Shown in pieces: positions 40,209 through 56,610 of a stretch of 64,000 nt of DNA. Location: NCBI GenBank assembly GCA_965369655.1, contig CBDUQR010000001.1:96001-160000 (forward strand), given 5' to 3'. Both the position numbers and the translations under genes were made by a program. Position 1 is the first letter of the stretch, and each line of letters starts with the position of its first letter. The stretch is from an uncultured bacterium (GTDB taxonomy: Bacteria > Zixibacteria > MSB-5A5 > JAABVY01 > JAHJOQ01). Below the pieces are notes generated by a model that saw nothing but the letters and a program-made list of their open reading frames with translations, was not told where the DNA came from and made no database searches.

Positions 40209-41665
40209 AGCTCAAGAACCGGCTGTTCACAGCGCTTCTCCTGCTGGCATTCCTGCCGGTGGCGCTGATCTCCTTCATCACTCTCGAACTGGCATCCGGA
40301 AGTCTGGACCGCCTCGCCTCGCCCGGAATCGCAAATGCACTCGAGGCGGCAGATTCCATCGTCACACTGACTTTCGAGTCTATCGAATCGATGTGCGCGG
40401 ACGGCGCATCCAGAATGGCAAAGCTGCCTCATATTGATAGTGCGCTACTCGGAGATTTCGACTTTGCAATCGTAACAGACAGGGACATGACAGCATGGAT
40501 CGGCGAGGCTCCTGACTCGATAACACGGGAAAAGATATTGGATTTTCACCGGGACAGTTCTGATATCCGGCTCACCGACAGGATAATGTCTGGCGATACA
40601 TTTATCATCGTTGGAAAAGCATCGGCATACGGCGATGATCGACACCTGACGATCACCGTCGGACGAAACATGGGCAATGAGATCGCGCCTCTTTATGAAC
40701 GCCTCGGCAGGAATACTCGTAGCTTCGAGCGACTCGGTCAACTCAAGCATCCCGGAAAGAACACCCTGAGAGTATTATGGGCGGCGTTCGTCGCACTCTA
40801 CCTGCTGCTGATCCTTCTCATTTCGAGAATCACCGCGCGAAAGCTCACAATGCCGTTAGCCCGACTCGGCGAGTTAGCCGAAACAGTGGGGCGTGGTCAG
40901 TGGGATGTCCGGCTCGAATACAATCGCAACGATGAAATCGGCGCACTGACATCCGGATTCAACCGAATGTCGCAGCAACTCGGAGAGACTACGAGAAAAC
41001 TGATCGAGACGGAGAAAATTGCCGCGTGGCAGCAGACGGCTCGCGTGATCGCTCATGGGCTGAAGAACATGCTCGCTCCCATAAGGCTTGCTGTCGCGCG
41101 TCTGCCCGAATCATCTGATAAGAATGAGAGTGCCGACCTGTCACCGATGACAACTATCAATGCCGAACTGAGTCGGCTCGAAAAGGCGGCCGGAGATTTT
41201 TCCCGCTACGGCAAGCCGGTCGAGCCAAATGCCGCGATAATCGATCCGAACGTAGTCGTGAGGCAGGCGATCTCGGTAGCCGAGGGGTGCGACGTCAAGC
41301 TGGAAGTCGATCTGGATAGCAATCTTCCTTACATCAAATGCGATGGCGCACTCCTGAGAGATGCGCTGATAAACCTCGTGAAGAATGCATGCGAGGCAGT
41401 CGATCAGGATGGCTCCGTTGCGATTCAAACCCGAAGCCGCAACGACCGGGTCGAAATCGCCGTATCAGACACGGGCACGGGGATAGATCCGGAGATACGC
41501 GATCGCATCTTCGAACCGTATGTCACGACAAAATCATCCGGAACAGGACTGGGTCTGGCCATCGTAAGGAAGATAGTAGAGTCATCGGGAGGCGCCATCG
41601 AGTTGGAGACAGGCGACAGCGGAACGACTTTCACGCTCAAATTCGAGGCCGCTAATGAGAGATGA
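40205..41665 (+). CDS. HAMP sensor histidine kinase (NtrY-like)
   Basis: 2 TMs, HAMP 'DEIGALTSGFNRM', 'AWQQTARVIAHGLKN', NLVKNA, D.GTG, GTGLGL. Confidence 0.92.
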   Translation: MKLKNRLFTALLLLAFLPVALISFITLELASGSLDRLASPGIANALEAADSIVTLTFESIESMCADGASRMAKLPHIDSALLGDFDFAIVTDRDMTAWIGEAPDSITREKILDFHRDSSDIRLTDRIMSGDTFIIVGKASAYGDDRHLTITVGRNMGNEIAPLYERLGRNTRSFERLGQLKHPGKNTLRVLWAAFVALYLLLILLISRITARKLTMPLARLGELAETVGRGQWDVRLEYNRNDEIGALTSGFNRMSQQLGETTRKLIETEKIAAWQQTARVIAHGLKNMLAPIRLAVARLPESSDKNESADLSPMTTINAELSRLEKAAGDFSRYGKPVEPNAAIIDPNVVVRQAISVAEGCDVKLEVDLDSNLPYIKCDGALLRDALINLVKNACEAVDQDGSVAIQTRSRNDRVEIAVSDTGTGIDPEIRDRIFEPYVTTKSSGTGLGLAIVRKIVESSGGAIELETGDSGTTFTLKFEAANER

Positions 41666-43019
41666 ACCTTGTGACATTTTCGTGGTCGATGACGACCGCT
41701 ATCTCAGGGATGAGCTGACCATACTCTTGAGACAGGCGGACTACCACGTTTCATCTCACGAAACGATCTCGTCGTGCAAAAGTGAACTTGCGCGGCGCGT
41801 ACCCCTGTTGATCCTGCTCGATATCCAGTTGCCGGATGGCAACGGCGTCGACTTCCTCAAAGAACTCATGAACAGGGACAATCCCCCTGAGGTCGTGATG
41901 GTCTCCGGTGCGGCATCTCTTCAGGAAGCCGCAGATTCAGTTAAACTTGGCGCCGCCGATTTTCTGGAGAAACCATTCGCGCCGCAGCGACTGCTCTCAA
42001 TCGTCAGGAATTGTATCGAGATTGCCCGACTGAAACAGGCACATGCAAGACTCATCCGGGACAGGCTGGCGGAATTCGAGATCATCGGCGAGTCTGCCGC
42101 TACTGTCGAGACAATTGAACAGATCAGGCAGATCGCCGATACCAACGCTCGCGTTCTGATAACTGGAGAGAGCGGCACGGGAAAAGAACTCGTGGCCGGT
42201 CAGATACACCTTCGCAGCAAGCGCGCCCTGGGACCATTCGTGAAGATCAATTGCTCAGCGATGCCGCCGGATCTCGTCGAGAGTGAACTCTTCGGACATG
42301 AAAGAGGAGCATTCACCGGCGCGGTCGATAAGAGACAGGGCAAATTCGCAGCAGCCGACGGCGGGTCGCTGCTACTCGATGAAATCGGAGATATGCCAAT
42401 CGCGGCGCAGCCGAAACTCCTGAGAACTCTCGAAACAGGCGTGATCGAGCCGATTGGCAGCACAGATGCAATCTCGGTCGATGTTCGGTTGATCAGTTCG
42501 AGCAACCGGGACCTCGACGAGCTTTCAGGTCGTGGTGAGTTCAGATCTGATCTCCTGTACAGAATCAACACTGTACCGATTCATTTGTCTCCTCTTCGCG
42601 ACCGACGCGAAGACATTCCAATTCTCGCGGAGCACTTTCTGACACGGCTTGCATCGCAGAATATGGACACGCGGGCGGAATTTGATGACGGCGTGATGGA
42701 ACTACTGATCGCGCACGACTGGCCCGGAAATGTGAGAGAGCTGCGGAATCTAATCGAACGCGCATTCTACACGTCAACTGACCGCAGAATCACACCGGAG
42801 CATATTAGAATCTGCCTTGGCGAGAAGGGCGACATTACGAAACCCGACATTGAAGCGGGCAATCGCAACAGGCTGTCGGCGGCTGTTACACAATTTGAAA
42901 AAGGTTTTCTGAGGTCTGAACTTCGGGCGGTGGATGGCAATATCAACCAGTTAGCTGGAAAGCTGCGAATGGATCGGGGCAATCTCTACAGGAAGCTGAA
43001 GAAACTTGGACTGCTGTAA
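41655..43019 (+). CDS. Sigma54-dependent response regulator (NtrX/NtrC-like)
   Basis: REC (DDD, LLDI, EKP), GESGTGKE, GAFTGA, WPGNVREL, Fis-type HTH. Confidence 0.95.
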   Translation: MRDEPCDIFVVDDDRYLRDELTILLRQADYHVSSHETISSCKSELARRVPLLILLDIQLPDGNGVDFLKELMNRDNPPEVVMVSGAASLQEAADSVKLGAADFLEKPFAPQRLLSIVRNCIEIARLKQAHARLIRDRLAEFEIIGESAATVETIEQIRQIADTNARVLITGESGTGKELVAGQIHLRSKRALGPFVKINCSAMPPDLVESELFGHERGAFTGAVDKRQGKFAAADGGSLLLDEIGDMPIAAQPKLLRTLETGVIEPIGSTDAISVDVRLISSSNRDLDELSGRGEFRSDLLYRINTVPIHLSPLRDRREDIPILAEHFLTRLASQNMDTRAEFDDGVMELLIAHDWPGNVRELRNLIERAFYTSTDRRITPEHIRICLGEKGDITKPDIEAGNRNRLSAAVTQFEKGFLRSELRAVDGNINQLAGKLRMDRGNLYRKLKKLGLL

Positions 43020-43190: not shown

Positions 43191-44993
43191 ATGAATAAGA
43201 GTAGTATCAAATACGGACTGATAGTGGCAGCGTCAGTATCCGCGCTGATTATCATAGCGCTGCTTCTGTCCGGCAGCGCACGAGCAGCAGAGATCACACC
43301 CCCCGAGACGTTTCAACTCACTATCGAACTCAATGACGAGCAGGGCACGATCGTTGTCGAATATGGCGACATGAGGAAACGGTATCGATTCCGTGCCGAC
43401 GAGGTCAGTATTGCAGAGGGTGCAGTGACGATCACGCCCGATTTCGCGTTCACCGTCGACGGCATCCTGGCTGACGGCATACTCTATCCGATAGAGAACC
43501 TCCGAGTCGACGAAATATACCATGAGAAAGAGTTGATCAGTGTTGTCCTCAAGCATCGCAAGCAGACAGCAGCGGCAAAACGCCGACAGATCAAGCGCAA
43601 CCGAGTCGCGGTCACAGGAAGGCTCGTCGTGGATCACGATGATTTCGTCAGAGGAGATATTATCTGTTTCGGAGGAAATATCGAGGTTCGAGGAGAGGTG
43701 AATCGGAATGTAGTGGCAATCTTCGGTGATGTCTTCATCGTGGATGAGGGCATTGTGCGAGGTAATGTCGTGGCCATTGACGGCAAAGTCAACATGCGCG
43801 GCGAGGCGTCGGTCTACGGCGAGATCGCCGCTCACAGAGGACTCAGGAAGAGTGGCGGGGTCCGCGTCAGATTCGACTCCGAGGGATGGGGACCGAAAGA
43901 ATCTGATCTGATCGCATCATACAATCGCGTCGATGGGCTGCTGCTCGGCGGAAGAGGAGCGCTCGCCGATCCGGACTCGCTGCTGCCGACAATCCATGCG
44001 AGCTTAGGTTATGCTTTCGAGTCTGAACGGATGCATTACGAAGTCGGCGTTCACCAGAAACTGTTCGACAAATACTCGTTCACAGCCGGCGGGAGTTTCT
44101 TCAGGCAGACATCGACCGACGACGGCTGGCTTTCGCCTAGAAGAGAAAACTCGCTTCTGGCGATTCTTGCCGCCGAAGATTTCCGTGACTATTATGAGGA
44201 AGAGGGTGGAAAGGCATACCTGACATTCTGCCCCGGATACTACAATGAAATCGGCATCGGCTACAGGTTCACCGACCTGAAATGGATGGATCATCATCCG
44301 CTCTTATGGTCGCTCTTCGGGTGGGAGAAAGAATTCCGTTCCAATTTCTCATCGATCCCAGCTGACAAGAGGCGTGATGCCGGCGATCAATTCGACTCAA
44401 AGCTCGGCGAATTGAGCGCTTGGTACACACTCGACACACGCGATGACGATGAAGAACCATATTCTGGATGGTGGGCGCACGTGGAATACCTGACCGCTGG
44501 CGACAGACTCAAGGGTGACATAGCCTATGACAGACTCACCGCCGAGATCAGACGTTACCAGCCGATCACACACCGTCAGAACATCAATGTCAGGGCGAAA
44601 TACGGCATCGCCGGCAGAGATGTGCCGTTGTTCAGACAGTTCTATCTCGGTGGCATGAGGACAATCCGCGGACTCGATCATAAGAGTCTGATCAAAGTGC
44701 ATGAGCATGTTGTAGCAGGCGACACCGTAACCGTGATAGAGGGCGAACAGATGATCCTCGGGAATCTCGAATATGTCATCAACTTCCCGAAGGCATCTTT
44801 TGAGACCTCGCTGCTGTTCGACGTCGGGAAGGTCGTATCGAGAAAAGATAATATATTCTCCGACGGAGATTTCCATTCATCGGTCGGGATACGGCTCGGC
44901 TTCGAGGATGGCTTCAGCCTCGAGGTAGCCAAATCGCTTGATGACTCTGACGAACCGGTGAAACTGTGGGTACTCTTTCAACAATCATTCTGA
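43191..44993 (+). CDS. Omp85/BamA-TamA-like outer-membrane protein with bactofilin-like (polymer-forming) N-terminal segment
   Basis: Signal peptide; 'GDIICFGGNIEVRGEV..NVVAIFGDV' repeats; 'YNRVDG'; 'FYLGG..TIRG' Omp85 motif; terminal Phe. Confidence 0.8.
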   Translation: MNKSSIKYGLIVAASVSALIIIALLLSGSARAAEITPPETFQLTIELNDEQGTIVVEYGDMRKRYRFRADEVSIAEGAVTITPDFAFTVDGILADGILYPIENLRVDEIYHEKELISVVLKHRKQTAAAKRRQIKRNRVAVTGRLVVDHDDFVRGDIICFGGNIEVRGEVNRNVVAIFGDVFIVDEGIVRGNVVAIDGKVNMRGEASVYGEIAAHRGLRKSGGVRVRFDSEGWGPKESDLIASYNRVDGLLLGGRGALADPDSLLPTIHASLGYAFESERMHYEVGVHQKLFDKYSFTAGGSFFRQTSTDDGWLSPRRENSLLAILAAEDFRDYYEEEGGKAYLTFCPGYYNEIGIGYRFTDLKWMDHHPLLWSLFGWEKEFRSNFSSIPADKRRDAGDQFDSKLGELSAWYTLDTRDDDEEPYSGWWAHVEYLTAGDRLKGDIAYDRLTAEIRRYQPITHRQNINVRAKYGIAGRDVPLFRQFYLGGMRTIRGLDHKSLIKVHEHVVAGDTVTVIEGEQMILGNLEYVINFPKASFETSLLFDVGKVVSRKDNIFSDGDFHSSVGIRLGFEDGFSLEVAKSLDDSDEPVKLWVLFQQSF

Positions 44994-45649
44994 GCAGGGT
45001 CAGCATAACAATCCTGACGCTGCAGATCGTGGTGATCTCAGTTGCTGCTGCGCAGACCACACCCAGAATCACTCCTCTTATCTATCGCGACAGCCTCGCG
45101 GTTGCGATCGACTGCGAGGAATTGTTTGATGACAGCAGGATCAGAGAGCTTCACGATGGTTATCCGCTCTCATTCGAACTGAAACTTTCACTCCGCAAGA
45201 GAGTGCCCCTGTGGACCGACTCAAAAATTGGAGCAGTTAAATCGCGTTTCAGAGTCACATTCAGGCGGTGGGATTCCCGGTACGATCTCGAGCTTGTCGA
45301 CTTTGGTCGTTCGCACTTCTCAGCGCACTTTGAAACGCCCGATGAAATCTTGCTTGAACTGGAAGAGCGGCTTTTTGCTACGATAGAACATGTCTCCCGG
45401 CTCGACAGCACAAGCCACTACTACATCGAAGTCGAAGTCAAATACCGCAACCTGACATTCGACGATGTAAAATCGACTGAGGACTGGCTGACGAACGGCG
45501 ACAACCGAGGCGATTTCGACACCAGCGAAACCATCGACTTCGGCGAGCATCTCGTGAAATTCCTGTGGGATATCGCCGGGCCGGGCGCAGATTCCCGGAA
45601 ATCGACCACGAGGGAGTTCAAACTGGGCGATCTTCGTATTTCCCGATAA
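44966..45649 (+). CDS. DUF4390-like exported protein
   Basis: Signal peptide; 'L.DG.PL.F.L.L.RK..LW.D' pattern; next to an NtrYX-like pair. Confidence 0.6.
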   Translation: MGTLSTIILSRVSITILTLQIVVISVAAAQTTPRITPLIYRDSLAVAIDCEELFDDSRIRELHDGYPLSFELKLSLRKRVPLWTDSKIGAVKSRFRVTFRRWDSRYDLELVDFGRSHFSAHFETPDEILLELEERLFATIEHVSRLDSTSHYYIEVEVKYRNLTFDDVKSTEDWLTNGDNRGDFDTSETIDFGEHLVKFLWDIAGPGADSRKSTTREFKLGDLRISR

Positions 45650-45821
45650 GCCGCATTCTCAGGACCCAAACCGCCTGTTCCGTGCGATTCCCCAGCCTAC
45701 TAATCACAATCACGACATAAGGTTGCAGCTATTGAGCTTAATTTTACGCTCATGGCTCCGATATATATATAGTTGAAGGGACTTGGGCATCTATAATCCT
45801 AAGAACTCTCGAGGAGTACGT

Positions 45822-47624
45822 ATGCCATACGAAAAACAACATCAAGACGACAGCGATTCGACATCGAAAGTCTACATCCCGAATCTGGGAGGCCAGAACA
45901 AGACCGTAGAGAATGCCACAAAGGCTGAGCAACCAGACCCTCTCGCTGATCTCGAATTGAGTCTTGACATCATAGCACGGAAAAATCCACGACTGACCAG
46001 CAGGACGGACAGATCAGAAGCCCGCAGCACAGACTTGAAGGCGCTCCTGGAAATATCCAACGCAGTCAACTCCACGCTCGTCTTAGATGAGATACTGCGG
46101 ATAGTCATGGGAAAAGCCATCGAGCTGCTGCAGGCGGAACGGGGCTTCCTGATGCTGCTCGATGATAATGGAAAGCTGGCAATCAGGACAGCTCACAATA
46201 TCCAGAAGGACAGGATGCCGGAGGATGATGTCAGGTTGTCTACCTCGATTTCCAACAAAGTTGTCCGGACAGGCAAGCCGGTCTTCTCATCCGATGCACA
46301 GGCTGACGAGCGTTTTGCCAAACAGGAGAGCATTCTCGAACTGCATCTGCGATCAATTATGTGCGTTCCGCTGAAAGTCAAGGACAGGATCATCGGGGTA
46401 GCATACCTCGATAACAGCTCCAACACAAAGATATTCCTGCAGAGCGATCTCTATCTCTTCGAGCTTTTCGCGGAGCAGGCAGCCACAGCGATAGAGAACG
46501 CTAAACTCTACGAGAGTCTTCTCGACCTGAAGCATTACAACGAAAACGTAGTAGATAAGACGCCGGTTGGAATCATCGCCACAGACAACGAGTTGAAGGT
46601 TACATCCCTGAATTCCGCGGCAGCGAAAATACTGAGCACATCGGGCGTCGAACCGGTCCGGTACGATCCGCAATCGGCGCCGGTGCCGTTCGTGTCACTC
46701 TGGCCCGGGAAAAGTGCGGAGCATTGGGACAAAATCGCCAGCGAAGTGCTCAGGACCGGCGATTCGTTCCAGGACAACAAGTACTATCTCCAGGTGGGCG
46801 AAGAGCAGAAAGTCCTCTCCATAAAGATCAGCCTCCTGGACGAGGGCACCAGAGAGAACAGCGGACTCATCGTCGTGATTGAGGATATCACCGACAAGGC
46901 CTTGCTGGAGAATTACGTGCTCATGTCGGAGAGACTGGTTGCGAAAGGTGAGATGGCAGCTGCTATCGGCCACGAACTCAACAACTATCTCACCATCATC
47001 TCGAACAACGCAGAGCTCATGAAGCTCAATGTGCGCCGGAACATACTCGATAAGCTTGAGAAGAACACGAGCGCGATCCTCGACAACATTGCCAAAATCA
47101 AGAGGTTCACAGACAGCCTGATGGATTACTCCAGGCTGGAAGCGGAGATTATCGATTATCAGGTCAGTGAACTCATCGAGGAGTTGCTATTCTCGATCAG
47201 ACCGCAGAAGGAAATCAGGCATGCATCGATCGAGGTCGATATTCCGACCGACCTGCCAATAGTAGAGATGGATGTGGGACAGATGCACCAGGTGCTTCTC
47301 AACCTCATCAACAATGCCGTAGAAGCCGTTCGAGATAAGAAGGATGTGAAGGCCGAAATCCTGATAACTGCATCGCACGATCGAACGACGGATGAGATTT
47401 CGATTGAAGTAGCCGACAACGGTCCCGGGATAAAGCCGAAAAATATCAAGAAGATTTTCGAACCAAGATTCACGACCAGGCAAGAAGGACACGGACTCGG
47501 TCTGTCGAACTGTAAGCGTATCATGGACAGCCATCACGGGAGCATAACCGCAATATCCGATGGCTGCGACGGCGCTACTTTCAGAATAACCATGCCCGTC
47601 AGACAGCCGGTCGACGCAAAATAG
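45822..47624 (+). CDS. Cytoplasmic GAF-PAS histidine kinase
   Basis: SD GAGGAG; GAF 'LRSIMCVPLK..GVAYLDN'; PAS ending 'EDITD'; 'GHELNN', NLINNA, D.GPG, GHGLGL. Confidence 0.93.
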   Translation: MPYEKQHQDDSDSTSKVYIPNLGGQNKTVENATKAEQPDPLADLELSLDIIARKNPRLTSRTDRSEARSTDLKALLEISNAVNSTLVLDEILRIVMGKAIELLQAERGFLMLLDDNGKLAIRTAHNIQKDRMPEDDVRLSTSISNKVVRTGKPVFSSDAQADERFAKQESILELHLRSIMCVPLKVKDRIIGVAYLDNSSNTKIFLQSDLYLFELFAEQAATAIENAKLYESLLDLKHYNENVVDKTPVGIIATDNELKVTSLNSAAAKILSTSGVEPVRYDPQSAPVPFVSLWPGKSAEHWDKIASEVLRTGDSFQDNKYYLQVGEEQKVLSIKISLLDEGTRENSGLIVVIEDITDKALLENYVLMSERLVAKGEMAAAIGHELNNYLTIISNNAELMKLNVRRNILDKLEKNTSAILDNIAKIKRFTDSLMDYSRLEAEIIDYQVSELIEELLFSIRPQKEIRHASIEVDIPTDLPIVEMDVGQMHQVLLNLINNAVEAVRDKKDVKAEILITASHDRTTDEISIEVADNGPGIKPKNIKKIFEPRFTTRQEGHGLGLSNCKRIMDSHHGSITAISDGCDGATFRITMPVRQPVDAK

Positions 47625-47626
47625 AA

Positions 47627-50600
47627 ATGCAGCAGTCCAGGATCGATCTCCCAGAGAGATACGCGATTCTCGACTCCCTCGGAGAGGGCGGCGGCGGGAG
47701 TGTGTTCAGGGTGAAGGACAAGTTCACGGACCGGACTGTTGCTCTCAAGCTGTTCAGCCCGGCCGGGGATGTGCCGACCGACGAAGATGCGTTTCGGAAC
47801 GAGTTCCTTCTCACCGTATCGCTGAATCACCCGAATTTGATGGCTGCATATGATTACGGCTATGATGCCGGCAATCATCCCTTCTTTACTGCGGAACTGG
47901 TCGACGGATCGCGGATCGATTCCGAAGTCGCCTTGAGAGACAAGAACACATTCCTCGATCTCCTCGGACAGATATGCGCAGGGCTCAGGCACCTGCACAT
48001 CTTCGGGTACTCACACAACGACCTAAAGCCCGAGAACATCCTTATTGACCTGCATGAGAGAAAGCCGGTAGCAAAGATTCTCGACTTTGGACTCGCCCGG
48101 CGATACGATCCGACTCACGCAAAAAAGATGTCAGGCACTGTCGAATACATGGCGCCGGAAATCTTCAAGTCTGAAGCTCCGACATCAGGGAGCGACATCT
48201 ACACACTCGGAGTAATCCTCTATGAACTGGTCACAGGCCACAAGCCATACGAGAGCGATGATCCGCTCGAAGTCATCTCCGGGCACATCGAAGGGCGCCT
48301 TCCTCCAATCGAACCGCGAGTGGGATTCTTCGGCGAAGATTGCATTCGGATATTATCAGGCATGCTCGCCAAGACTCCATCGGAAAGGCCGGAGAACATC
48401 TCCAGAGTCTTCAATTCCTTTGCTCGCGCCCTTGGTGCTGAGACGAGTCGGGTCGGAGATGATCAACTCATCTGCGCGTTTGAGTCATCGATCAATTTGC
48501 TAATATCTCGCTCTGAATATCTCGATGATATTCTCTCCAATAGAGAGACAGAATTTCGCGTTTTATGTACCGATAGTGTCATAGCTGACTCGACCGCGAG
48601 ATTCCTGATGGCGCGGCTCCAGACCATGTTTGTCAACGTGCGCATCGACGGAAATGATCTCAGCATGACGTCGGTTCACGCGAAAGAAACCGTTGACATC
48701 GCAACAGTCGACTGTCGAGACAGCTTCGATACATGCGGCTCACGCATCGTGAACATCCATAACTACGGGAGAATCCCTGACGATCTTACAGGCGCAACGA
48801 TCCTCGAAGGCGACAGACTGATCCCGGCTGCGCTCGAAACGATACTCCGGACCGACAAGGAATCTGTCAGGCACAGGGATGCAGTAGTGGAATTGTGCGG
48901 TGGTGACTGCGCTCTTGCGAAGGCAACACTCGCGCAGTTGTGGCGCGACGGAGTTATCACCGACGACGATATCGGATTCAGAATTACATCCGACCCTGCA
49001 AATAATCTGCCACAGAGCATTAGCAGCATCGTCACTGAGGATCTGTCGTTCCTGAACAATGACGAGTTGACCGCATTGACAGGCCTGTCTCTGTTCACGC
49101 ATGATTTCTCGGAGCAACTGGCGACAGCGATCCTGACCGAACTGCACTGCGACGCGCCAAACATGCTCACGAATCTTGTGTCTTACAGAACACTGATCGA
49201 GCAGGGCGACAGGTACAGCTTCAGACATCCGGTAATGCAGAAAGTCCTGAATGCCAGACTTGAATCGGAAATCAGACGTTCGCTGCATCTCATCGCCGCC
49301 CGACAGATCGAAAGCGACAATGACCTCGAAGATACAGTACGTACCGGTCGTGTCGGCTATCATCTGCTGTGCGCAGGCGAATTGCAGAAGTCTATCGGAT
49401 ACGTTGTCGAATACCAGAAGATGCTTGCCGACAAAGGGGAATTCGTGGAGCCGGAGGCGCTGCTCGCGTCGTGTGAGCAAGCCGCAATGACTGATAGTTC
49501 GATCGACGACGGTTCAAGAAGCGAGCTCCTTATGGCGTTCGGCGATCTCCTGAAGAATCAGGGAAGATTCGATGAGGCCGCAGACAGGTATAGACAAATT
49601 ACAGAACTTCCCGGAGTGGAGCCTCGTCTCCTGGCCGAGACTTACAAGGATCTCGGTGATATTTACAAGTCGCAGGTTGATTTCACGTCCGGCCTCAGAG
49701 TCCTCGAAAAAGCGCTCAAGATTTACGGGGAACTGGACGACCGCCTCGAGGTTTCTCATACCCTGAACAACATGGGCAACATGTACTGGATCAACTCGCA
49801 GTATGATTTCGCCCTGGATAAATATCAGCAGGCTCTCGAGATTCAGGAAGAACTGGATGCTGTCAAAGACATCGCCTCGACATTGTCGAATATCGGCACA
49901 ACTTACTACATCAAAGGCGCCCACCATACGGCGATTGAGTACTACGAACGCTCTATTGAACTCAAAAAGATCATCAATGATGAACCGGAAATCGCCAGAA
50001 CATACAACAACATGGCGGCCGCCTATCTCCGCATACAGCAAGCTGGGCGCGCTCTCAACTACCTGAACCGATCAATGGCCATCAACAGAAGGATCGGCGC
50101 ACAGAAAGAGCTGATGTTCAACCTCGAGAACACGGTCGAGGTATGTATGGGACTCGGCGAGTTCAAGAGATCTGAAGAGCTTGCCGCAGAGGGGCTTGCT
50201 TCGGCGCGACGACTCGACGACTCGCCGCACGTCGGAATATTCAGCTATTGGCTCGGCCTGCTCTACGGAGAGCGCGGACTGCTCGGTCAATCACTGAGAT
50301 ACCTCGAGAAATCTGAGGAGATCGGCGACAGCATCTCAGACAAATCATTTTCCGCCAGAACGCAGTTAGCGCTCGCACACAATTACATCCAGATGAACTC
50401 TCTCGACAGGGTTGGATCATGCATCGCAAAAGCCCGGAAGGTCATCTCTCCTGTCGACCCAAGCCATGAACTTACGTATCTGAAAGTGATCAGTGCCCGC
50501 GAAGACTTCATCTCGGGCAAAGACACAGGCGCAATCCTCGCGAAGCTTGATATTGCTGAGAAGGAAGCCGAAAAGCACGACCATTATGTCGAGCTGTGTG

Positions 50601-51037
50601 AGGCATTGTTGGTGCGGCTCGACGTGACGCTCGCAGGAGGCAGGATACAGGCGGAAGATCTCGAGAAACTCGACAAGATGACCGAGGTGGATCAACACAC
50701 CATCTACCGCAGCCATCTCTACTTCTACCTTGCCGTATCAAGCATGCGTGACACGCTGTTCAATGAAGCTCTAAGCTATTTCGAGCAGGCTCAGGTCATG
50801 GCAACAGCGTTTGAACAGCGAGAACTCCTCGCGAGAATAAATCTCTACAGCGGCAAGGTCTGTATCAGGCAACTGGAATACGAAGATGCGTTCTTCAGAT
50901 TGAAGCAGGCCGGTGAGATTGTGAAGGGAATCGTTGCCGATATCGGCGATATTGGGCTCGTTAGATCCTATATGAGTAGTCCTGAAAAACTCGAACTGGT
51001 GGAGGCGGTCAGACACCTGGCTGTGAAGCTCGGTTGA
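47627..51037 (+). CDS. Hanks-type Ser/Thr kinase with degenerate STAND-like middle region and long TPR array
   Basis: GEGGGG, VALK, HNDLKPEN, DFG, GTVEYMAPE; TPRs with TLNNMG/TLSNIG/TYNNMA. Confidence 0.92.
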   Translation: MQQSRIDLPERYAILDSLGEGGGGSVFRVKDKFTDRTVALKLFSPAGDVPTDEDAFRNEFLLTVSLNHPNLMAAYDYGYDAGNHPFFTAELVDGSRIDSEVALRDKNTFLDLLGQICAGLRHLHIFGYSHNDLKPENILIDLHERKPVAKILDFGLARRYDPTHAKKMSGTVEYMAPEIFKSEAPTSGSDIYTLGVILYELVTGHKPYESDDPLEVISGHIEGRLPPIEPRVGFFGEDCIRILSGMLAKTPSERPENISRVFNSFARALGAETSRVGDDQLICAFESSINLLISRSEYLDDILSNRETEFRVLCTDSVIADSTARFLMARLQTMFVNVRIDGNDLSMTSVHAKETVDIATVDCRDSFDTCGSRIVNIHNYGRIPDDLTGATILEGDRLIPAALETILRTDKESVRHRDAVVELCGGDCALAKATLAQLWRDGVITDDDIGFRITSDPANNLPQSISSIVTEDLSFLNNDELTALTGLSLFTHDFSEQLATAILTELHCDAPNMLTNLVSYRTLIEQGDRYSFRHPVMQKVLNARLESEIRRSLHLIAARQIESDNDLEDTVRTGRVGYHLLCAGELQKSIGYVVEYQKMLADKGEFVEPEALLASCEQAAMTDSSIDDGSRSELLMAFGDLLKNQGRFDEAADRYRQITELPGVEPRLLAETYKDLGDIYKSQVDFTSGLRVLEKALKIYGELDDRLEVSHTLNNMGNMYWINSQYDFALDKYQQALEIQEELDAVKDIASTLSNIGTTYYIKGAHHTAIEYYERSIELKKIINDEPEIARTYNNMAAAYLRIQQAGRALNYLNRSMAINRRIGAQKELMFNLENTVEVCMGLGEFKRSEELAAEGLASARRLDDSPHVGIFSYWLGLLYGERGLLGQSLRYLEKSEEIGDSISDKSFSARTQLALAHNYIQMNSLDRVGSCIAKARKVISPVDPSHELTYLKVISAREDFISGKDTGAILAKLDIAEKEAEKHDHYVELCEALLVRLDVTLAGGRIQAEDLEKLDKMTEVDQHTIYRSHLYFYLAVSSMRDTLFNEALSYFEQAQVMATAFEQRELLARINLYSGKVCIRQLEYEDAFFRLKQAGEIVKGIVADIGDIGLVRSYMSSPEKLELVEAVRHLAVKLG

Positions 51038-51049
51038 TGTATATAGGGA

Positions 51050-51076
51050 AAGAGGCCGCCAAAAGGCGGCCTCTAA
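51050..51076. terminator. Hairpin terminator between convergent genes (U-tract stronger on minus strand)
   Basis: AGAGGCCGCC-aaaa-GGCGGCCTCT. Confidence 0.8.
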
Positions 51077-51107
51077 TTCCGGTCATCATCACCTTTGGGG
51101 CATAGGG

Positions 51108-51182
51108 TTATTGACCACCCAGACTGATTCCCGCAGGTGCGACTTTCTCTTCCAGTTCTTCAATCAAGAGATCATAGGTCAT
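51108..51182 (-). CDS. 24-aa peptide MTYDLLIEELEEKVAPAGISLGGQ (precursor/signal-peptide-like), not in ORF track
   Basis: SD AGGAGGTG 5 nt before ATG; own promoter and terminator. Confidence 0.8.
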   Translation of the reverse strand: MTYDLLIEELEEKVAPAGISLGGQ

Positions 51183-51284
51183 AGTCACACCTCCTATGTT
51201 GACGTGGACGACCGATCCCCCGCTCTCGCGGGTTACCCGAGATTGTCATCTTCATCTCTGAAGATGAGTTAGCTAACTGGATAA

Positions 51285-51313
51285 ATATTAGCGATCTGAT
51301 CGACAGATGTCAA
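51285..51313 (-). promoter_or_regulatory. Sigma70 promoter of the peptide gene
   Basis: TTGACA-17-TAATAT on the minus strand. Confidence 0.65.
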
Positions 51314-51375
51314 GCTAATTCTGACAAAAAACCGCGTAATTGACAGAAACCCAAATAGTTGGATGGGCTTCAGGC

Positions 51376-53202
51376 CTACAGAGTTTCCATCTCCTTCAGC
51401 CTTTTTCTGGCATGCTCCTGAAGGATCAGATTATCGAACTCGGTGAGAAGCCTGCGGTAGGCGCTTTCAGATACGGCAAGATCGCCGCTCTCGAACTGAA
51501 TGTCCGCTATGTATCTTAGAGATTCCGCTCTATAGAAGCTGTCCGTGAAGTCATCGAGAATCCTCTTAAATGTCTCTACCGCGACCAGGGAATCGCCCAG
51601 CAGCAACTGCAACTCGCCAAGCCTGAAAGTGGATATATCGGCCAGCAAAGCTCCCTCTTTCGACGAGATGCCCGTCAGCAGCACCGCAGCGGAGTCGTAT
51701 CTCCCGGTCAGAATCATGTGTTCGGAATCGGCATAGGAATCAAGATCGATTCTGTCGAAACCGACAATTTCGTCGATCATCAGTATCTTGCGCAGGCAAT
51801 CGTTGACATAAAGCCCCTTGCGAAACCTGACAGTCAACTGTGCATACAGTCTCTTCGCCTCATCGTAGTTGTGTGAAAAAAACTTCGATTGAGCTTTTCT
51901 CCAGATCAGCCTTTCCTGACCTTCCTCAGAGAGTTTGTCCATCTGAACCAGATCGTATAGACTGTCGGCTGTTTCAAAATCGTCCAGAGCTATGTAGCAG
52001 TCACCCATCCAGAGCATCGCCAAGTGATGCCATATCAAAGTCCTTGGATCGTCGGTAACACTGCCAAAATACACAAGTGCGGAATCAGGCTCATTCATGC
52101 TCTCGAGATACAGCCTTCCGATAGCGAAACGTGCTTCGATGATCTCTCGGCCATCAGGAGAGTTCTCCGCGATCTGGTGCAGGACCGAGATCGCCGAGTC
52201 GCCATGTCCCATATTGGAGTATGCCGCCGAAAGAACATAGCGGGCTTGAATCACGCCCGGTTTGCCAGGATACTGGTCGAGCACGAACCTGCACGTTTCC
52301 ACGGCCAGAGGATAGTCTTCGCGCTCAAGGCATCTCCTTGCGAAAAAAACCAGGTATCTGCCTTCTTCATGCCGAAGTTCATCGACCTCTCTGTATACCT
52401 GATAAGCCTCGCGGAGGTCGTTCTGCCTGATAAGCAAGTCAGCGTAATATTTCCTCGGGATATGATCCGATGGGTGAGCCTTCGACAATGCGACAAACTC
52501 AGCCTTCAGAAGCTCCATGTCCTCGTCGTCATCAACAGAATCGACCAGCCGCCTGAGGAGCCGGTGCCCGCGTTCCATATTGAGCGTGTCGGAAACGGTG
52601 AACATGTAGTATTCTCGCGCGGCAGCCGGGTAATCTCTCCGAACCTCATACAGCCTGCCGAGTTGCTCGGCAAAGAGATACTTGTCGCCCTGTCTCTCTC
52701 TCCCCTTCAGGTAGGTTCCAATCGCCTCATCATAAAGTCCGTTGGCGCGGTAGACGCCCGATATCCGATGAGTGACGCTCTCTTTCCTCGGTGAATTCTT
52801 GAGACACATATCGAACTGTTTCGCCGCGTCTGAAAGCTCGCCCATCCGGAGATAAAGATGACCGTATTGGAGAAGGACATCGACAGTCCTGCCAGAGAGC
52901 TTCTCCATCTTCTCTATCGCGCTGGCAGCCTTCTCAAAATCCTTCGAGTAGATGTAGACCTTGCTTGTCAGCGACAGCACCGAGAGATCGTCAGGGTACT
53001 CCCTGTCGAGTTCGGTCAGCAGAATCAGAGCCTTGTCGTACCTGCCGTTCGCAACATGGCTTGACACCTTCTGAAGCGCGAGCTTTAGCCTTGCTTCGTT
53101 CTCATCCTGACCAAGCGCGATCTCGCTCGACATCCACAGCAGTACGAACATGAATGCGGTAAGGACGGAAATCGTCGCGTGAGATCGGTCGAACGAAAGC
53201 AC
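51376..53202 (-). CDS. Exported TPR protein
   Basis: Signal-like N-terminus, TPRs throughout; coupled to upstream gene. Confidence 0.85.
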   Translation of the reverse strand: MLSFDRSHATISVLTAFMFVLLWMSSEIALGQDENEARLKLALQKVSSHVANGRYDKALILLTELDREYPDDLSVLSLTSKVYIYSKDFEKAASAIEKMEKLSGRTVDVLLQYGHLYLRMGELSDAAKQFDMCLKNSPRKESVTHRISGVYRANGLYDEAIGTYLKGRERQGDKYLFAEQLGRLYEVRRDYPAAAREYYMFTVSDTLNMERGHRLLRRLVDSVDDDEDMELLKAEFVALSKAHPSDHIPRKYYADLLIRQNDLREAYQVYREVDELRHEEGRYLVFFARRCLEREDYPLAVETCRFVLDQYPGKPGVIQARYVLSAAYSNMGHGDSAISVLHQIAENSPDGREIIEARFAIGRLYLESMNEPDSALVYFGSVTDDPRTLIWHHLAMLWMGDCYIALDDFETADSLYDLVQMDKLSEEGQERLIWRKAQSKFFSHNYDEAKRLYAQLTVRFRKGLYVNDCLRKILMIDEIVGFDRIDLDSYADSEHMILTGRYDSAAVLLTGISSKEGALLADISTFRLGELQLLLGDSLVAVETFKRILDDFTDSFYRAESLRYIADIQFESGDLAVSESAYRRLLTEFDNLILQEHARKRLKEMETL

Positions 53203-56200
53203 TATCGGTCGACCTCCATGATCGCCTTGAAGTAGTCTTTGATGATCTCTTCGTACTCCGGAGGGTAGCCCTCTTCGAGGAATTTCTGGAGACGCCTCTC
53301 ATACGATTCAGATCCGACCTGAGCCGCCTCGTCGAGCGGATCGGGTCCCATGCGAAGAATCTGCTCAGCTCTGCTGGCTCGCCGTGTCTCGCTGTAGTCC
53401 TGTCGTTCCATAGAGAGTTGGAAATCGAGCATTCTCTGATATATCTTATTCTGCCGTTCGAGAGTCTCGTCTGTCACGCCTCCCTGTTCGAGGGCTTCGA
53501 CAACTCTTCGCATTTCTTCGGCCATGTTTTCCAGACGACCCTTTATCTGTTTCCTGTCGCCCAATTCTTCCTGAAGCTGCTGAACAGACTTGCGGACCGC
53601 GGACTGCTCTGCCGACAGTCGCTCCAACATGCTCTTGTCGCCCTGACCACGCTGATTGGGGTTGTTACACATGTTCTGCGACTGCTGGTTGATGCGCTTT
53701 TGTTGTTTGCATGTCTTGTTCATCTTCTGGAACATGCTCTGATTCGGCTTATTGCAGGATGAATTGCATTGTTGTTGGTTGTTGAGCGACTCCATTATTA
53801 CTCTCGAAGCCTGATTCAGAGACCCGATAGTATTCTTCTGCGACCCTATCGCCTGCGAGGCCTGCATTTCAGTCAGTGAAGAGGTCGATCTGCTCATTCC
53901 CGACATGCACTGCTTCATCAATTTGTCAATCTGACTCTGCATGAAGACTGATTCTTTCGCAATGTCGATAAGTTTCTGCCTGAGTGCCGAGGCCTGTGAC
54001 TGGAGAACCTGCTGTTCCTCGGCCAGCTTTCTGAGTTCCGATGACTGCATTTCATATCTGCCGACATCGCCCAATATCTCTTCCTGCTTGTCCGTGAGAT
54101 AGAATACGTCATCGAGCGCCTTCCTCATTTCCTTAGCCATCTGCTGCCCCATCTGCTGACTGAGAGCCATCTGCGCATCCTGCATCTGCTCCAGCATTTC
54201 CATAAGCTTCTGTTCCGCAGAATCACCCGACATCATGGCGTCGAGCTTCTCACTATCCGAGAGACTTGCAGTCATCTCCTCCATATCCTTCTCGGCGCCC
54301 GATTCCCTTGTCGCCCGGCAGAAACTCTTCGAGTGGGGGCTGCTGTCCATTTTGGCTTCTTTGAAGAGCTTCTCAAGCTCATCAGATTTCCGTTTCAGAT
54401 CTTCGAGTGAATTCCTGACCTGCTGTTCCTTCGGTGATAGATCAGGAAGTTTCTCCCTGTCGGATTTCTCGGTCCGTTCGTTGACCTTCTGCTGGTTCCG
54501 AAGGATTTCTTCGGCCTGACGGATCATATCCTGCATCATCTGGTCGGCCTGAAGTTGCTTGAGCTGGGCGATCGCACGTTCGATATTCTGGAGCACATCT
54601 TCGAGAGACATATCGAAGTTCTCCATCGCTTTTTCGACAGCCTCCTTGTCCATTTTCGCCAGCGCTTCCTGGAGTTTCTTCATCGCTTCTTTCATTTCAG
54701 GAGTGGCGACCTCCTCGAACAACTTCTGAAGCTCCTCGATCTTCTGGATCATCTGGAGAGTCAGAAGCTGATTCTTCTTAGCTTCCTGATTCGTCTCCTC
54801 GAACTGCTTCGCAAGTTCCTCGTACTCGTTGAGAAGCTGTTCCTGTCTCTCCGCAACCGATTCAAATGCTTTCTTGTCTTCCCAGTCGAGTTCTTTTTCG
54901 AGCCTGAGAGCCTGAGTCATCTCCCTGAACTCTTCGCCGATCCGCTCCTGCTGCTTGAGAGCCTCGACATATTCATTCATTTGATCCTCTCTGGAGCTTT
55001 CGATCTCCGAGAAAATCTCGCCGAGAGTCGGCAGCCTGACCGCCATCACCGGTCCGGTCGTCGATTTGGGACCGATCACGAAATCATTGTCGAATACTTC
55101 GAGATAGTACTCGATCCAGCTTCCCGGCAGCAGCCCGACATTCGCCAGATCCCAGAAATAATCAATCTGCTGCTCTGGTTTATATCCGGATATCTCGATC
55201 TTTTCAGATTGCTTCCATTCTTCGGTCGCCGTCAGATGAACAGTGTAGTTGAGCAAAAGCTTCGTGAATCCAAAATCATCGACCAGGTTAGCTATGAGTC
55301 GAACAGCCATGTCTTCGTCGAGGTCAACATTGCCACTCGGACTGACCATGTATATCTCAGGAAAGGCATCATCGAGAACTGTCACGCGATATTCGATCGG
55401 ATTGGGATTGCCGTACCCCGATCGGTCGGTAACCTCAGCATGATACGACAAGTCTGTCTCGACCTTTATCGTCGCGGTCGACACCTCGTGATCGCATTCC
55501 AGGTCTATTCTGCTTCCATCGGAGAACAGGAGCGCGCCCTGCTCGACAGGCTTATTGGCGGTCAGTTCGACATTGACTTTGGTTCCGCGAAGAGCCTGGA
55601 TATTGCCGTCGTTCTCATCGATAACAAGCGGTTTCAGCCTGGTGTATTTCGGATACATATATGTGAGCTTCAGGCCGGTGATCCTCGGCTTGTCGACCAC
55701 AGTTACATTGAACTGAATCGATTCTTCTCGTCCCGCCATGACAAAGTAGACGAAGTCGTGTCTTACTTCTTTGAACTTGTAGGTGAATACGTTTGAGTCC
55801 GGGCTTATGCCGAGAGCATTGACTATCCCCGGTGATGCTCCCGGAATGATCTTCTTCTCAAGCTCGTCGGATCGCCATTTGCCTTCACCGGAATTATCCC
55901 AGAATATCTCCGCCCGGTCCGGAAGCTTCTCGCCCCTGACTATGACTGTCAGTTCCAGAGGATCATATTTCAGGAGTTCCTTGTCTCCCGGCGCGACCGT
56001 CAACTCGTATGTTCTCGGCAGTTCGATCTCTTCCAGCGGATGCGAGAAAACATAAAATGAAGACCAGAACAGCCCCGGTGTCAGGATCGCAAGCAGAAGC
56101 GTCACGGCAGCCGCAGCCCCGAAGTACTTGAGCAGTGCAGTGAGTTTGCGGTTCGAATAGCTCGATTTGAGATTGAGACTGTCGATCATGCCACTGGTCC

Positions 56201-56597
56201 GGGATATAAGCGCTCTGATCATATCCGTCGAATAGTTCTCACGATTCTCGTGCAAATTCTGTTCGAGCTGCAATGATGCGATCACGCGGTTTTCCAACTG
56301 CGGGTACTTGCGCTCGACCCGGCGCGACATCGTTTCAAGCGATGGTCTGAACATAACCGGCACGATCAGACACCTGGCAATCAGGAATACCAGAAACAAT
56401 ACCACAATGCCGACAAAGACCGATCTGACGGTAACATCAAGGTAGAACAGGGCATGCATCAGGTTGGCGACAGCGAACGCGATCAGCAGGGCTGTCGCGA
56501 TGAGAACTATAGCGTACACCGACCGACAGAGAACGACATATCGCCTGAGACCTTTGAGTCTCCGCGTCAGCGAGATCATGTCATCGCGGATCGACAT
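53202..56597 (-). CDS. DUF4175-like membrane-anchored Ig + long coiled-coil protein
   Basis: N-terminal TMs, 'YPKYT', 'D..PEI', 'DDFG', 'FDND', Q/E-rich coils, terminal 'PPEYEEIIKDYF'. Confidence 0.8.
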   Translation of the reverse strand: MSIRDDMISLTRRLKGLRRYVVLCRSVYAIVLIATALLIAFAVANLMHALFYLDVTVRSVFVGIVVLFLVFLIARCLIVPVMFRPSLETMSRRVERKYPQLENRVIASLQLEQNLHENRENYSTDMIRALISRTSGMIDSLNLKSSYSNRKLTALLKYFGAAAAVTLLLAILTPGLFWSSFYVFSHPLEEIELPRTYELTVAPGDKELLKYDPLELTVIVRGEKLPDRAEIFWDNSGEGKWRSDELEKKIIPGASPGIVNALGISPDSNVFTYKFKEVRHDFVYFVMAGREESIQFNVTVVDKPRITGLKLTYMYPKYTRLKPLVIDENDGNIQALRGTKVNVELTANKPVEQGALLFSDGSRIDLECDHEVSTATIKVETDLSYHAEVTDRSGYGNPNPIEYRVTVLDDAFPEIYMVSPSGNVDLDEDMAVRLIANLVDDFGFTKLLLNYTVHLTATEEWKQSEKIEISGYKPEQQIDYFWDLANVGLLPGSWIEYYLEVFDNDFVIGPKSTTGPVMAVRLPTLGEIFSEIESSREDQMNEYVEALKQQERIGEEFREMTQALRLEKELDWEDKKAFESVAERQEQLLNEYEELAKQFEETNQEAKKNQLLTLQMIQKIEELQKLFEEVATPEMKEAMKKLQEALAKMDKEAVEKAMENFDMSLEDVLQNIERAIAQLKQLQADQMMQDMIRQAEEILRNQQKVNERTEKSDREKLPDLSPKEQQVRNSLEDLKRKSDELEKLFKEAKMDSSPHSKSFCRATRESGAEKDMEEMTASLSDSEKLDAMMSGDSAEQKLMEMLEQMQDAQMALSQQMGQQMAKEMRKALDDVFYLTDKQEEILGDVGRYEMQSSELRKLAEEQQVLQSQASALRQKLIDIAKESVFMQSQIDKLMKQCMSGMSRSTSSLTEMQASQAIGSQKNTIGSLNQASRVIMESLNNQQQCNSSCNKPNQSMFQKMNKTCKQQKRINQQSQNMCNNPNQRGQGDKSMLERLSAEQSAVRKSVQQLQEELGDRKQIKGRLENMAEEMRRVVEALEQGGVTDETLERQNKIYQRMLDFQLSMERQDYSETRRASRAEQILRMGPDPLDEAAQVGSESYERRLQKFLEEGYPPEYEEIIKDYFKAIMEVDR

Positions 56598-56610
56598 AAC
56601 TACATACCTT

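Follow-up and report, generated by a model that had tools for sequence, protein, structure and literature searches.

A conserved 24-residue peptide gene linked to a STAND-type Ser/Thr kinase, a histidine kinase and an M50-HlyD protein: a candidate peptide-signalling system in a two-membrane bacterium

We describe a gene for a 24-amino-acid (24-aa) peptide, and the conserved genes that accompany it, in a 64,000-nt stretch of DNA from an uncultured bacterium of the candidate phylum Zixibacteria (GTDB class MSB-5A5; assembly GCA_965369655.1, contig CBDUQR010000001.1, positions 96,001 to 160,000; hereafter the window). The small gene is genuine, is widespread in the class, and is gained and lost together with the genes for two larger proteins, one joining a Ser/Thr kinase to tetratricopeptide repeats (kinase-TPR) and the other joining an M50 metallopeptidase to a HlyD-type adaptor (M50-HlyD). 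Judging from its motifs, the product looks like a leader-plus-core precursor. We favor, with slightly better than even confidence, the reading that M50-HlyD cuts and exports this precursor and that the kinase-TPR protein and a neighboring histidine kinase (HK) form a sensing or regulatory arm. An earlier note on this DNA had suggested a peptide-signalling system; its core stands, in that a real peptide gene is tied to the HK and kinase-TPR genes across the class, while the bare ligand that it envisaged gives way to a probable precursor partnered with M50-HlyD.

The genes run as follows, in window coordinates.

43191..44993, plus strand: Omp85-family outer-membrane protein (Pfam Omp85, E 6.9e-22) with a signal-like hydrophobic N-terminus; first gene of the plus-strand operon
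44966..45649, plus strand: DUF4390 protein (Pfam DUF4390, 28 bits; cut-off 27), hydrophobic segment at the N-terminus; 28-nt overlap with the Omp85 gene
45822..47624 (open reading frame, ORF, 45783..47624), plus strand: HK with the layout GAF-PAS-HisKA-HATPase_c (Pfam GAF, PAS_4, HisKA, HATPase_c)
47627..51037, plus strand: kinase-TPR protein, 1136 aa (Pfam Pkinase and TPRs), starting 2 nt past the HK stop
47627..48480, plus strand: Hanks-type Ser/Thr kinase domain of kinase-TPR (Pfam Pkinase, E 5.1e-45, residues 12-256), non-RD (HND)
48410..49561, plus strand: predicted degenerate STAND nucleotide-binding oligomerization domain (NOD) of kinase-TPR, with alpha/beta subdomain, helical domain and winged helix but no Walker A (AlphaFold2, AF2, model and Foldseek)
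49500..51037, plus strand: TPR sensor region of kinase-TPR (Pfam TPR_12, TPR_1, TPR_10, TPR_MalT; about residues 630-1004)
51051..51076, no strand: GC-rich hairpin between the convergent genes, with a 10-bp stem AGAGGCCGCC/GGCGGCCTCT, 14 nt past the kinase-TPR gene
51108..51182, minus strand: putative 24-aa precursor peptide gene, ATG at 51182 and TAA stop at 51108, encoding MTYDLLIEELEEKVAPAGISLGGQ
51183..51313, minus strand: expression signals of the peptide gene (promoter-like site, 5' untranslated region with hairpins, AGGAGG)

Four plus-strand genes (Omp85, DUF4390, HK, kinase-TPR) are thus arranged head to tail, and the peptide ORF on the minus strand converges with the last of them across the hairpin. 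This is the arrangement that the earlier note had reported, an HK followed 2 nt later by a kinase-TPR gene converging through a hairpin on a 24-aa gene, and each element was found in its place. Over a 75-nt stretch the hairpin has a minimum free energy of -28.5 kcal/mol (z -4.08; 0 of 200 shuffles as stable), and it is likely a bidirectional terminator; a simple terminator scan missed it because it has no T run. The peptide gene has an AGGAGG at 51195..51190, 7 nt ahead of its ATG, and a promoter-like TTGACA-17-TAATAT site at 51313..51285 on the minus strand. Its 5' untranslated region of about 95 nt holds two GAGA-loop hairpins at 51266..51247 and 51232..51219. By eye, related peptide genes (L089-L148) mostly have a TTGAC-type promoter box about 130-170 nt upstream and a GC-rich hairpin shortly 5' of the Shine-Dalgarno sequence, for example CCCGG-TTTA-GCCGGG, where the window has CCCGC-GAGA-GCGGG. 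A loose pattern for sigma-54 promoters found none ahead of the peptide genes in the related loci inspected, and Rfam gave only sub-threshold matches around 51 kb (50900..51500), headed by engA RNA (18.9 bits; threshold 46).

The 24-aa ORF is a genuine gene, and a chance ORF is ruled out because it is conserved and codon-periodic. The earlier note had proposed a scan for such ORFs beside homologous kinase-TPR genes, and they were found there. In a first sample of 60 relatives, collected by kinase-TPR protein search and scanned in six frames across their flanks, the closest 11 loci (L002-L012) include 10 with the ORF beside the kinase-TPR gene, the exception being the 2.2-kb contig fragment L012. 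Of the 19 loci L012-L030, 12 contain it, and family f7 has it about 3 kb further along. All related copies have an AGGAGG-type ribosome-binding site 6-8 nt before the start. A profile built from 21 peptides was then run over a class set of 285 genomes from 130 genera, including 198 high-quality genomes, and matched 227 genomes, 104 genera and 159 high-quality genomes, usually with one copy. At least 19 matches were confirmed among the 599 stretches listed by a profile search of public genome contigs. Averaged over the alignment columns of 44 distinct nucleotide versions, entropy comes to 0.47 at the first codon position, 0.37 at the second and 1.31 at the third, and 7834 synonymous codon differences stand against 6079 non-synonymous ones. 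Peptide identity holds at 71-83% while kinase-TPR identity drops from 73% to 29%. At 75 nt including its stop, the gene is shorter than common gene callers accept by default. A six-frame motif scan of this genome gave the single copy and no paralogues, and no NCBIfam model matches the peptide at E <= 1.

The peptide appears to be divided into two parts that evolve differently. In the window, a predicted leader, MTYDLLIEELEEKVAP, precedes a predicted core, AGISLGGQ. The leader is acidic, 16 residues long, and follows the consensus x-Y-x-L-x-(I/V)-E-x-L-E-x-(K/R)-(V/I)-A-P, so that (E)LE(E)(K/R)(V/I)AP occupies residues 9-16 and is followed by 7-9 residues. These have the consensus x-G-aromatic/aliphatic-S/T-x-G-G-Q, with Ser or Thr at core position 4 in nearly all versions. 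Other families have AGYSGAGS, GGYTGAGS, VIFSQGGQ, LSSAGGQ or GSASNGSS after the Ala-Pro. In genus g61 the kinase-TPR gene is absent and the peptide gene occurs in tandem, with 4 copies in G113 and 7 in G115. These copies retain the leader, NYEL-K/R-I/V-E-Q/E-LEARIAP, and everything after the AP differs: SRYGAE, SKYGSSR, SRWGAD, SKYGIG and one 20-residue tail. The tandem genes sit between the HK and M50-HlyD genes, at 8109..9848 of L151 (G115:C1:1288500-1306500) and 8542..9656 of L152 (G113:C1).

A similar motif is known from daptides. As a daptide preprint describes them, daptide precursors carry an RRE-recognized leader motif, ELExMEAP, with Pro at position -1 in MpaA, and were found through ribosomally made and post-translationally modified peptide (RiPP) recognition elements (RREs) fused to an intramembrane site-2 protease (bioRxiv 10.1101/2023.03.08.531785). 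Compared by eye with that quoted motif, our peptides share E-L-E-x-x-x-A-P. A profile search of 1.84 billion representative proteins returned 92 matches at E <= 1e-3, mostly 24-75-aa ORFs ending with the motif, some with longer cores. Several chains of about 100-180 aa in this library (P0021, P0037, P0056, P0088, P0018, P0020, P0047) hold 2-4 repeats of LE-x-K/R-I/V-AP plus a short core, either G-I/V-S-x-N-H-N-E-T-L-V (for example GISVNHNETLV) or ...NRCE(A/T)LV, and resemble multi-core precursors with one leader motif; no NCBIfam family scores above its cut-off for these chains, and one of them matches the ammosamide/lymphostin leader model at 16.6 bits, below the cut-off of 30, which is only a lead. 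Taken with the daptide motif and its P(-1) site, the g61 variants and the repeat-type precursors lead us to read residues 1-16 as a leader and AGISLGGQ as a core. The 24-aa product would then be a precursor and not a bare ligand, and cleavage would fall after the Ala-Pro.

In most relatives (19 loci with 6-kb flanks and a later set of 60 regions), the gene that immediately precedes the peptide gene on the same strand encodes a protein that might perform this cleavage. It is about 770 aa long and matches Pfam Peptidase_M50 (E 1e-4 to 1e-8) and HlyD. All three proteins searched match the NCBIfam model NF041824, "daptide biosynthesis intramembrane metalloprotease", over positions 8-370 (E 1.9e-63, 1.3e-63 and 4.7e-59), and the YydH/LiaK RiPP protease model matches at E 2.4e-13. 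An HExxH motif (HEFAH) and an NxxPxxxLDG motif are present, with H191, E192, H195, N285, N287, P288, D293 and G294 invariant in 10 of 10 sequences, and the span from residue 130 to residue 440 holds roughly six hydrophobic segments. In this genome's copy the first 90 residues match Pfam PqqD (PF05402) at 23.7 bits against a cut-off of 23.4. An AF2 model of residues 1-89 (pLDDT about 74-91) has as its best PDB matches TbiB1 with its leader peptide, lasso B1 and PqqD, with TMt 0.59-0.73 and probability 1.00. The model thus supports an RRE at the N-terminus, a PqqD-like winged helix with a three-strand sheet that is predicted to bind the leader. The copy in this genome is on another contig (G000:C21:31218-33512; 36% identity to the query); it has moved there, and the peptide gene has a promoter-like site of its own. 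In this genome (3959..5251 of L085, G000:C21), as in 19 of 60 loci, the gene just upstream of M50-HlyD, on the same strand, encodes a CLC chloride channel with CBS domains.

Linkage was measured in 60 regions of +-9 kb round peptide matches, from 59 genomes chosen to span the listed genera, with neighbors grouped by BLAST clustering.

Kinase-TPR near the peptide gene: 54/60 loci, median +63 nt, convergent (51/60 by hidden Markov model, HMM, with a coverage cut-off)
HK near the peptide gene: 53/60 loci, beyond kinase-TPR
Omp85 near the peptide gene: 46/60 loci, beyond HK
M50-HlyD near the peptide gene: 37/60 loci, median -255 nt, always on the same strand (36/60 by HMM)

Where M50-HlyD is not adjacent (family f18, 0 of 12 loci, and families f1, f12 and f7), the peptide gene stays with the kinase-TPR gene; at loci L098, L103 and L138 it stays with M50-HlyD instead. 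Co-occurrence was cross-tabulated by hand over the 285 genomes, with kinase-TPR called at E <= 1e-100 and the peptide at E <= 0.01. M50-HlyD is present in 239 of these genomes and kinase-TPR in 238.

Peptide and M50-HlyD: both in 223 genomes, peptide only in 4, partner only in 16, neither in 42
Peptide and kinase-TPR: both in 219 genomes, peptide only in 8, partner only in 19, neither in 39

Families f3 (0/3) and f4 (0/5) have none of the three. Five family f8 genomes without a peptide match were examined: G088, G110 and G091, which are nearly complete, have no full-length kinase-TPR, and the other two are otherwise explained, since the contig of G086 ends inside the kinase gene and G082 has a degenerate peptide. 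M50-HlyD was absent from all five of G088, G110, G091, G012 and G013. The peptide, M50-HlyD and kinase-TPR genes are gained and lost together. At G091:C3:101344-103985 the HK adjoins a 320-aa open frame that matches the kinase domain only, with the TPRs gone and the peptide and M50-HlyD lost. In G082 the degenerate peptide gene, MTDYKLTVEVLESRIETTHFSWGSE (L149, G082:C2, 8764..8859, minus strand), has lost the AP and the core and still lies between intact kinase-TPR and M50-HlyD genes.

The kinase-TPR protein combines three parts, and the description of these in the earlier note holds up. It had called the kinase non-RD, and the catalytic loop reads SHNDLKPEN. Across 54 orthologues, K41, D132, K134, N137, D153, P177 and E178 never vary, and H130 is kept in at least 90%; of 50 orthologues, 32 have G, 9 have N and 4 have R as the middle residue of HxD, so that most are non-RD. 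By these residues the domain is an intact non-RD Hanks kinase. The Asn ladder that had been noticed in the TPRs is present as LNNMG, LSNIG and YNNMA, with N755, N794 and N795 invariant and N714, N715, N718, N820, N832 and N835 at least 90% conserved in the 54 orthologues. Residues 641-840, which comprise five TPRs and this ladder, are the best-conserved stretch of the protein, at 0.53-0.59 per 40-residue block against 0.07-0.34 in the middle region.

That middle region is the least conserved part (residues 281-640) and ranges from 218 to 495 residues in length across orthologues. As the earlier note had seen, the window protein lacks a recognizable Walker A there, and no GK[ST] was found. A profile of the domain searched against solved structures matched only designed helical and TPR repeats, through its C-terminal part. 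Folded alone, residues 262-645 gave a confident AF2 model (pLDDT 88.7, pTM 0.84), for which Foldseek returned 12 PDB matches at E <= 1e-3, with Apaf-1 at the top (E 2.5e-5) and CED-4, the STAND-TPR protein 6mfv, MalT (8bob) and plant NLRs among them. The fold thus bears out the kinase-STAND-TPR layout known from fused proteins that the earlier note had invoked, and the model identifies the protein as kinase plus STAND NOD plus TPR. A canonical GxxGxGKS occurs in 4 of 50 orthologues, from families f7 and f12, and an isolated GK[ST] in 3 more. Compared with the window protein, L129, L130, L140 and L141 form a decay series: families f7 and f12 retain an intact P-loop, the window lineage has lost it, and the alpha/beta subdomain is missing in f8, f13 and f18, where the middle region is 218-260 aa long. 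With Walker A gone from the window protein and a canonical P-loop so scarce among its orthologues, the switch can hardly be nucleotide-driven here; it has been shedding its dependence on nucleotide, whereas effector and sensor have been retained.

The HK is the best-conserved protein of the cluster (52-86% identity among order-level relatives, against 29-73% for kinase-TPR). It likely starts at ATG 45822, with GAGGAG 6 nt upstream, and has no receiver domain and no adjoining response regulator. Neither the HK nor the kinase-TPR protein has a hydrophobic segment (Kyte-Doolittle window 19, threshold 1.6), so both are cytoplasmic, as had been proposed for the HK. The earlier note went on to join the two kinases in a split receptor; this is not needed, because HK and kinase-TPR are separate genes in every locus examined.

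From these observations we propose the following working order. A highly expressed 24-aa precursor would be bound through its leader by the cytoplasmic RRE of M50-HlyD; the M50 site-2-type metalloprotease, in the inner membrane, would cut after the conserved Ala-Pro; and the HlyD-type periplasmic adaptor would hand the product outward. The Asn-lined TPR sensor may bind the peptide, either as precursor or as mature core, and the non-RD kinase would relay the signal, with the translationally coupled GAF-PAS HK as its most plausible recipient. We infer the cleavage site, the export, the TPR-peptide binding and the kinase-to-HK signalling, whereas the reality of the gene, the four-gene linkage and co-occurrence, the domain and fold assignments and the pattern of leader and core variation are direct results. 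A more specific possibility is a phylum-wide octapeptide pheromone circuit, in which exported x-G-phi-S-x-G-G-Q is sensed in the cytoplasm by the TPRs of a nucleotide-independent STAND kinase, which phosphorylates the HK. Such a circuit would be RRNPP-like logic built from different parts, joining Ser/Thr and His phosphorelay in a diderm; we offer it tentatively, as an idea with the chances clearly against it.

Several findings weigh against the proposed export and sensing. Both kinases being cytoplasmic, an exported peptide must re-cross two membranes, and no importer is found in the conserved cluster (60 loci, +-9 kb; Opp was not searched for in the genome). That the peptide contacts TPRs, kinase or HK is a prediction. 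In this genome M50-HlyD is unlinked to the peptide gene. The NF041824 scores, at 200-215 bits, are under the 300-bit equivalog cut-off, and M50-HlyD is therefore a homologue, not an equivalog, of the daptide peptidase; the PqqD match barely passes its cut-off in this genome's copy and misses it in two others (18.3 and 17.5 bits), and the Foldseek E values for the RRE model are weak (1.7e-3 to 4.5e-3). The core Ser is not strictly invariant, being Ile in one orthologue (AGYIGSGS after the AP). M50-HlyD occurs in 16 genomes and kinase-TPR in 19 without a peptide match, some of which are profile misses (G082, G086). The peptide and M50-HlyD persist without kinase-TPR in g61, so the kinase is not needed to make the peptide, and the HK persists without kinase-TPR in g61 and, beside the kinase remnant, in G091. 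Finally, related genomes are not independent, and the co-occurrence tables therefore overstate the support; the losses are nevertheless spread over several families and genera.

An alternative interpretation is biosynthetic. Here the kinase-TPR protein would be a tailoring enzyme whose TPRs hold the leader while the kinase phosphorylates the core Ser/Thr, the resulting phosphopeptide or dehydro-residue then being cut and exported by M50-HlyD, with the HK a bystander or a regulator. The near-constant Ser or Thr at core position 4 would fit such a role, as would the change of core where kinase-TPR is lost in g61. Daptide clusters offer precedents: as a later preprint describes, they can hold a kinase-containing lanthipeptide-dehydratase homologue that acts on core Ser (bioRxiv 10.1101/2025.07.11.664356), and PF00069 is given among the common matches in daptide clusters (bioRxiv 10.1101/2023.03.08.531785). 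The kinase domain also weakly matches the lanthionine synthetase models of class IV (E 1.3e-16) and class III (E 5.7e-7), with scores far short of the cut-offs. It is, however, much more like signalling kinases of the PknB type (E 2e-51) than like LanL or LanKC, and Pfam finds no lyase, cyclase or LanC domain in the kinase-TPR protein. The middle domain, by its modelled fold, is a STAND NOD, a signalling switch; the position of the presumed target Ser is held by Ile in one orthologue; and the two genes are convergent and separately transcribed. We consider a tailoring role unlikely, if a serious competitor.

The linkage itself could instead reflect inherited synteny only. The peptide and M50-HlyD would then be self-contained, producing a secreted or periplasmic peptide or handling a degradation substrate, and the Omp85-DUF4390-HK-kinase operon would just happen to adjoin them in this class. 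The two convergent units do have separate promoters, the survival of peptide and M50-HlyD in g61 would be expected, and, the class being a single clade, one ancestral arrangement could explain much of the linkage. Against this, the peptide gene stays with kinase-TPR in the very families where M50-HlyD has moved away, the peptide, M50-HlyD and the TPR-bearing kinase have been lost together repeatedly in separate families and genera, and the core is frozen where kinase-TPR is present and altered where it is absent. On balance, inherited synteny alone seems quite unlikely to us. Very unlikely, finally, is an intracellular micro-protein, a cytoplasmic docking or pseudo-substrate partner of kinase-TPR whose level the RRE-M50 protein sets by proteolysis: the peptide has no signal peptide, both kinases are cytoplasmic, and the whole 24-mer, leader included, is better conserved than the kinase (83% versus 73-29% identity), but the protease's fusion to a HlyD adaptor speaks for outward transport, and a kept leader with a varying core is typical of processed peptides.

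The proposed signalling system resembles several known ones in part. Daptides are close, judged by eye, in the E-L-E-x-x-x-A-P leader motif just ahead of the core, and they are also close in a peptidase (MpaP/DapP) made of an N-terminal RRE and an M50 site-2-type protease. None of 27 aligned peptides ends in Thr, whereas daptides have an invariant C-terminal Thr; the last residue here is Gln, Gly, Ser, His, Pro or Met. No MpaB-, MpaC-, MpaD- or MpaM-type gene (aminotransferase, Fe-ADH, methyltransferase) is present in the nine Pfam-annotated neighbor clusters (4-10, 12 and 13) from the 60 loci, a search that did not cover smaller clusters, cluster 11 or the rest of the genome. Lacking both the C-terminal Thr and, among these annotated neighbors, any tailoring gene, the peptide is not a daptide. 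The core is also only 7-9 residues long and not hydrophobic, the peptidase carries a HlyD adaptor, and the host belongs to a diderm candidate phylum, whereas the profile HMMs described in the daptide preprint are for Actinomycetota and Bacillota (bioRxiv 10.1101/2023.03.08.531785).

Membrane M50 proteases act on small peptides in two further systems. In the epipeptide system an M50 protease is thought, according to the account we cite, to cut and export a small ribosomal peptide, and in the pearlin system (TglA/TglG) a membrane M50 protease acts at the C-terminal end of a small scaffold peptide (PMC10885120). Epipeptides (YydF/EpeX with YydH/EpeP) share with our cluster the M50 intramembrane protease, as the LiaK/YydH match indicates, but the cluster has no radical-SAM epimerase or ABC transporter, and the precursor is another one. 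Pearlins likewise pair a small acidic peptide with a membrane M50 protease, but no PEARL (LanB-like) enzyme is present in the cluster. STAND-TPR proteins, namely MalT, the Apaf-1/CED-4 fold class and kinase-NOD-TPR proteins, have the same succession of effector, NOD and repeat sensor; the window protein differs in its loss of Walker A, and few of its orthologues retain a canonical P-loop.

The receptors of RRNPP systems use TPR-type repeats. In the account of this family that we cite, which describes it from Gram-positive bacteria, a membrane zinc protease, Eep, matures short precursors, which are exported, taken back up and then sensed in the cytoplasm (PMC7564271). By analogy with SHP/Rgg, ComS/ComR and cCF10/PrgX, our cluster has a very short precursor with a putative active part at the C-terminus, and we propose maturation by a membrane zinc protease, export and cytoplasmic sensing. 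The output here is a Ser/Thr kinase behind a STAND NOD and not a DNA-binding or phosphatase domain, and the protease is predicted to be RRE-guided and is fused to HlyD; there is an outer membrane, and no Opp/Ami-type importer is present in the cluster. Pfam and NCBIfam assign the kinase-TPR protein only to generic TPR families and the kinase family, with no membership of Rap, Rgg, NprR, PlcR or PrgX.

Other candidate identities were rejected. The prokaryotic modifier Pup ends in GGQ. A Pup-like role is ruled out, since PF03136, which covers the Pup ligase and deamidase (PafA/Dop), has no match in this 99.5%-complete genome and was detected in a control genome. The kinase-TPR protein is not a class III/IV lanthipeptide synthetase: its kinase part alone matches, there is no lyase or LanC part, and the core has no Cys. 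PADLOC matches (mad6, PD-T4-6) are confined to the kinase domain, with none for HK, M50-HlyD or Omp85, and membership of a defense system is thereby ruled out.

Among the other neighbors, the DUF4390 gene is in an equivalent position in 19 of the 60 loci (BLAST clustering), with the L089 copy scoring 42.9 bits. Two genes lie upstream of Omp85.

40205..41665, plus strand: HAMP histidine kinase (Pfam), upstream of Omp85
41655..43019, plus strand: sigma-54-dependent response regulator (Pfam), with an orthologue at the equivalent place in 22/60 loci

We treat these as context genes, and a tie between the regulator and the peptide system is hypothetical. On the other side of the peptide gene, a minus-strand operon (51376..57306) encodes proteins of 608 aa (TPR), 1131 aa (DUF4175) and 231 aa (DUF4159) and ends 190 nt before the peptide promoter. 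A link between the peptide and these genes is ruled out: the TPR gene is found there in 1 of 30 related loci (L003), and its position is therefore local synteny, unrelated to the peptide. Further along on the minus strand are a GmrSD-type restriction endonuclease (GmrSD_N, GmrSD_C; 57702..59396) and a DUF6754 protein (61941..62807; Pfam E 1.2e-117), which adjoins a bifunctional-type phosphoglucose isomerase (SIS, bact-PGI_C).

We found no published description of this cluster, of the 8-residue core or of its class-wide single-copy conservation, judging largely from titles and abstracts. The components are of known kinds, namely a daptide-type leader with an RRE-M50 peptidase, a HlyD adaptor, a STAND kinase and a GAF-PAS HK; it is their conserved combination that we found undescribed. 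The cluster is a candidate peptide-signalling system in a two-membrane bacterium. Peptide signalling sensed in the cytoplasm is known from Gram-positive bacteria, and a conserved set of precursor, maturase/exporter and kinase sensor across a whole candidate phylum of diderms would be a testable case outside them. Its 75-nt gene may escape gene callers. The daptide-type pairing of leader and RRE-M50 protein extends well beyond daptides, and LE-x-R-I-A-P peptides, some with repeated cores, are present in public data. PqqD/M50/HlyD-type clusters, mostly unnamed, also occur in Planctomycetota, Pseudomonadota and Acidobacteriota, and since such proteins are common across other diderm phyla, the principle may extend well past this class. 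The kinase-TPR family, meanwhile, offers a natural series of STAND switches, from loss of the P-loop to loss of the entire nucleotide-binding domain, with effector and sensor conserved throughout.

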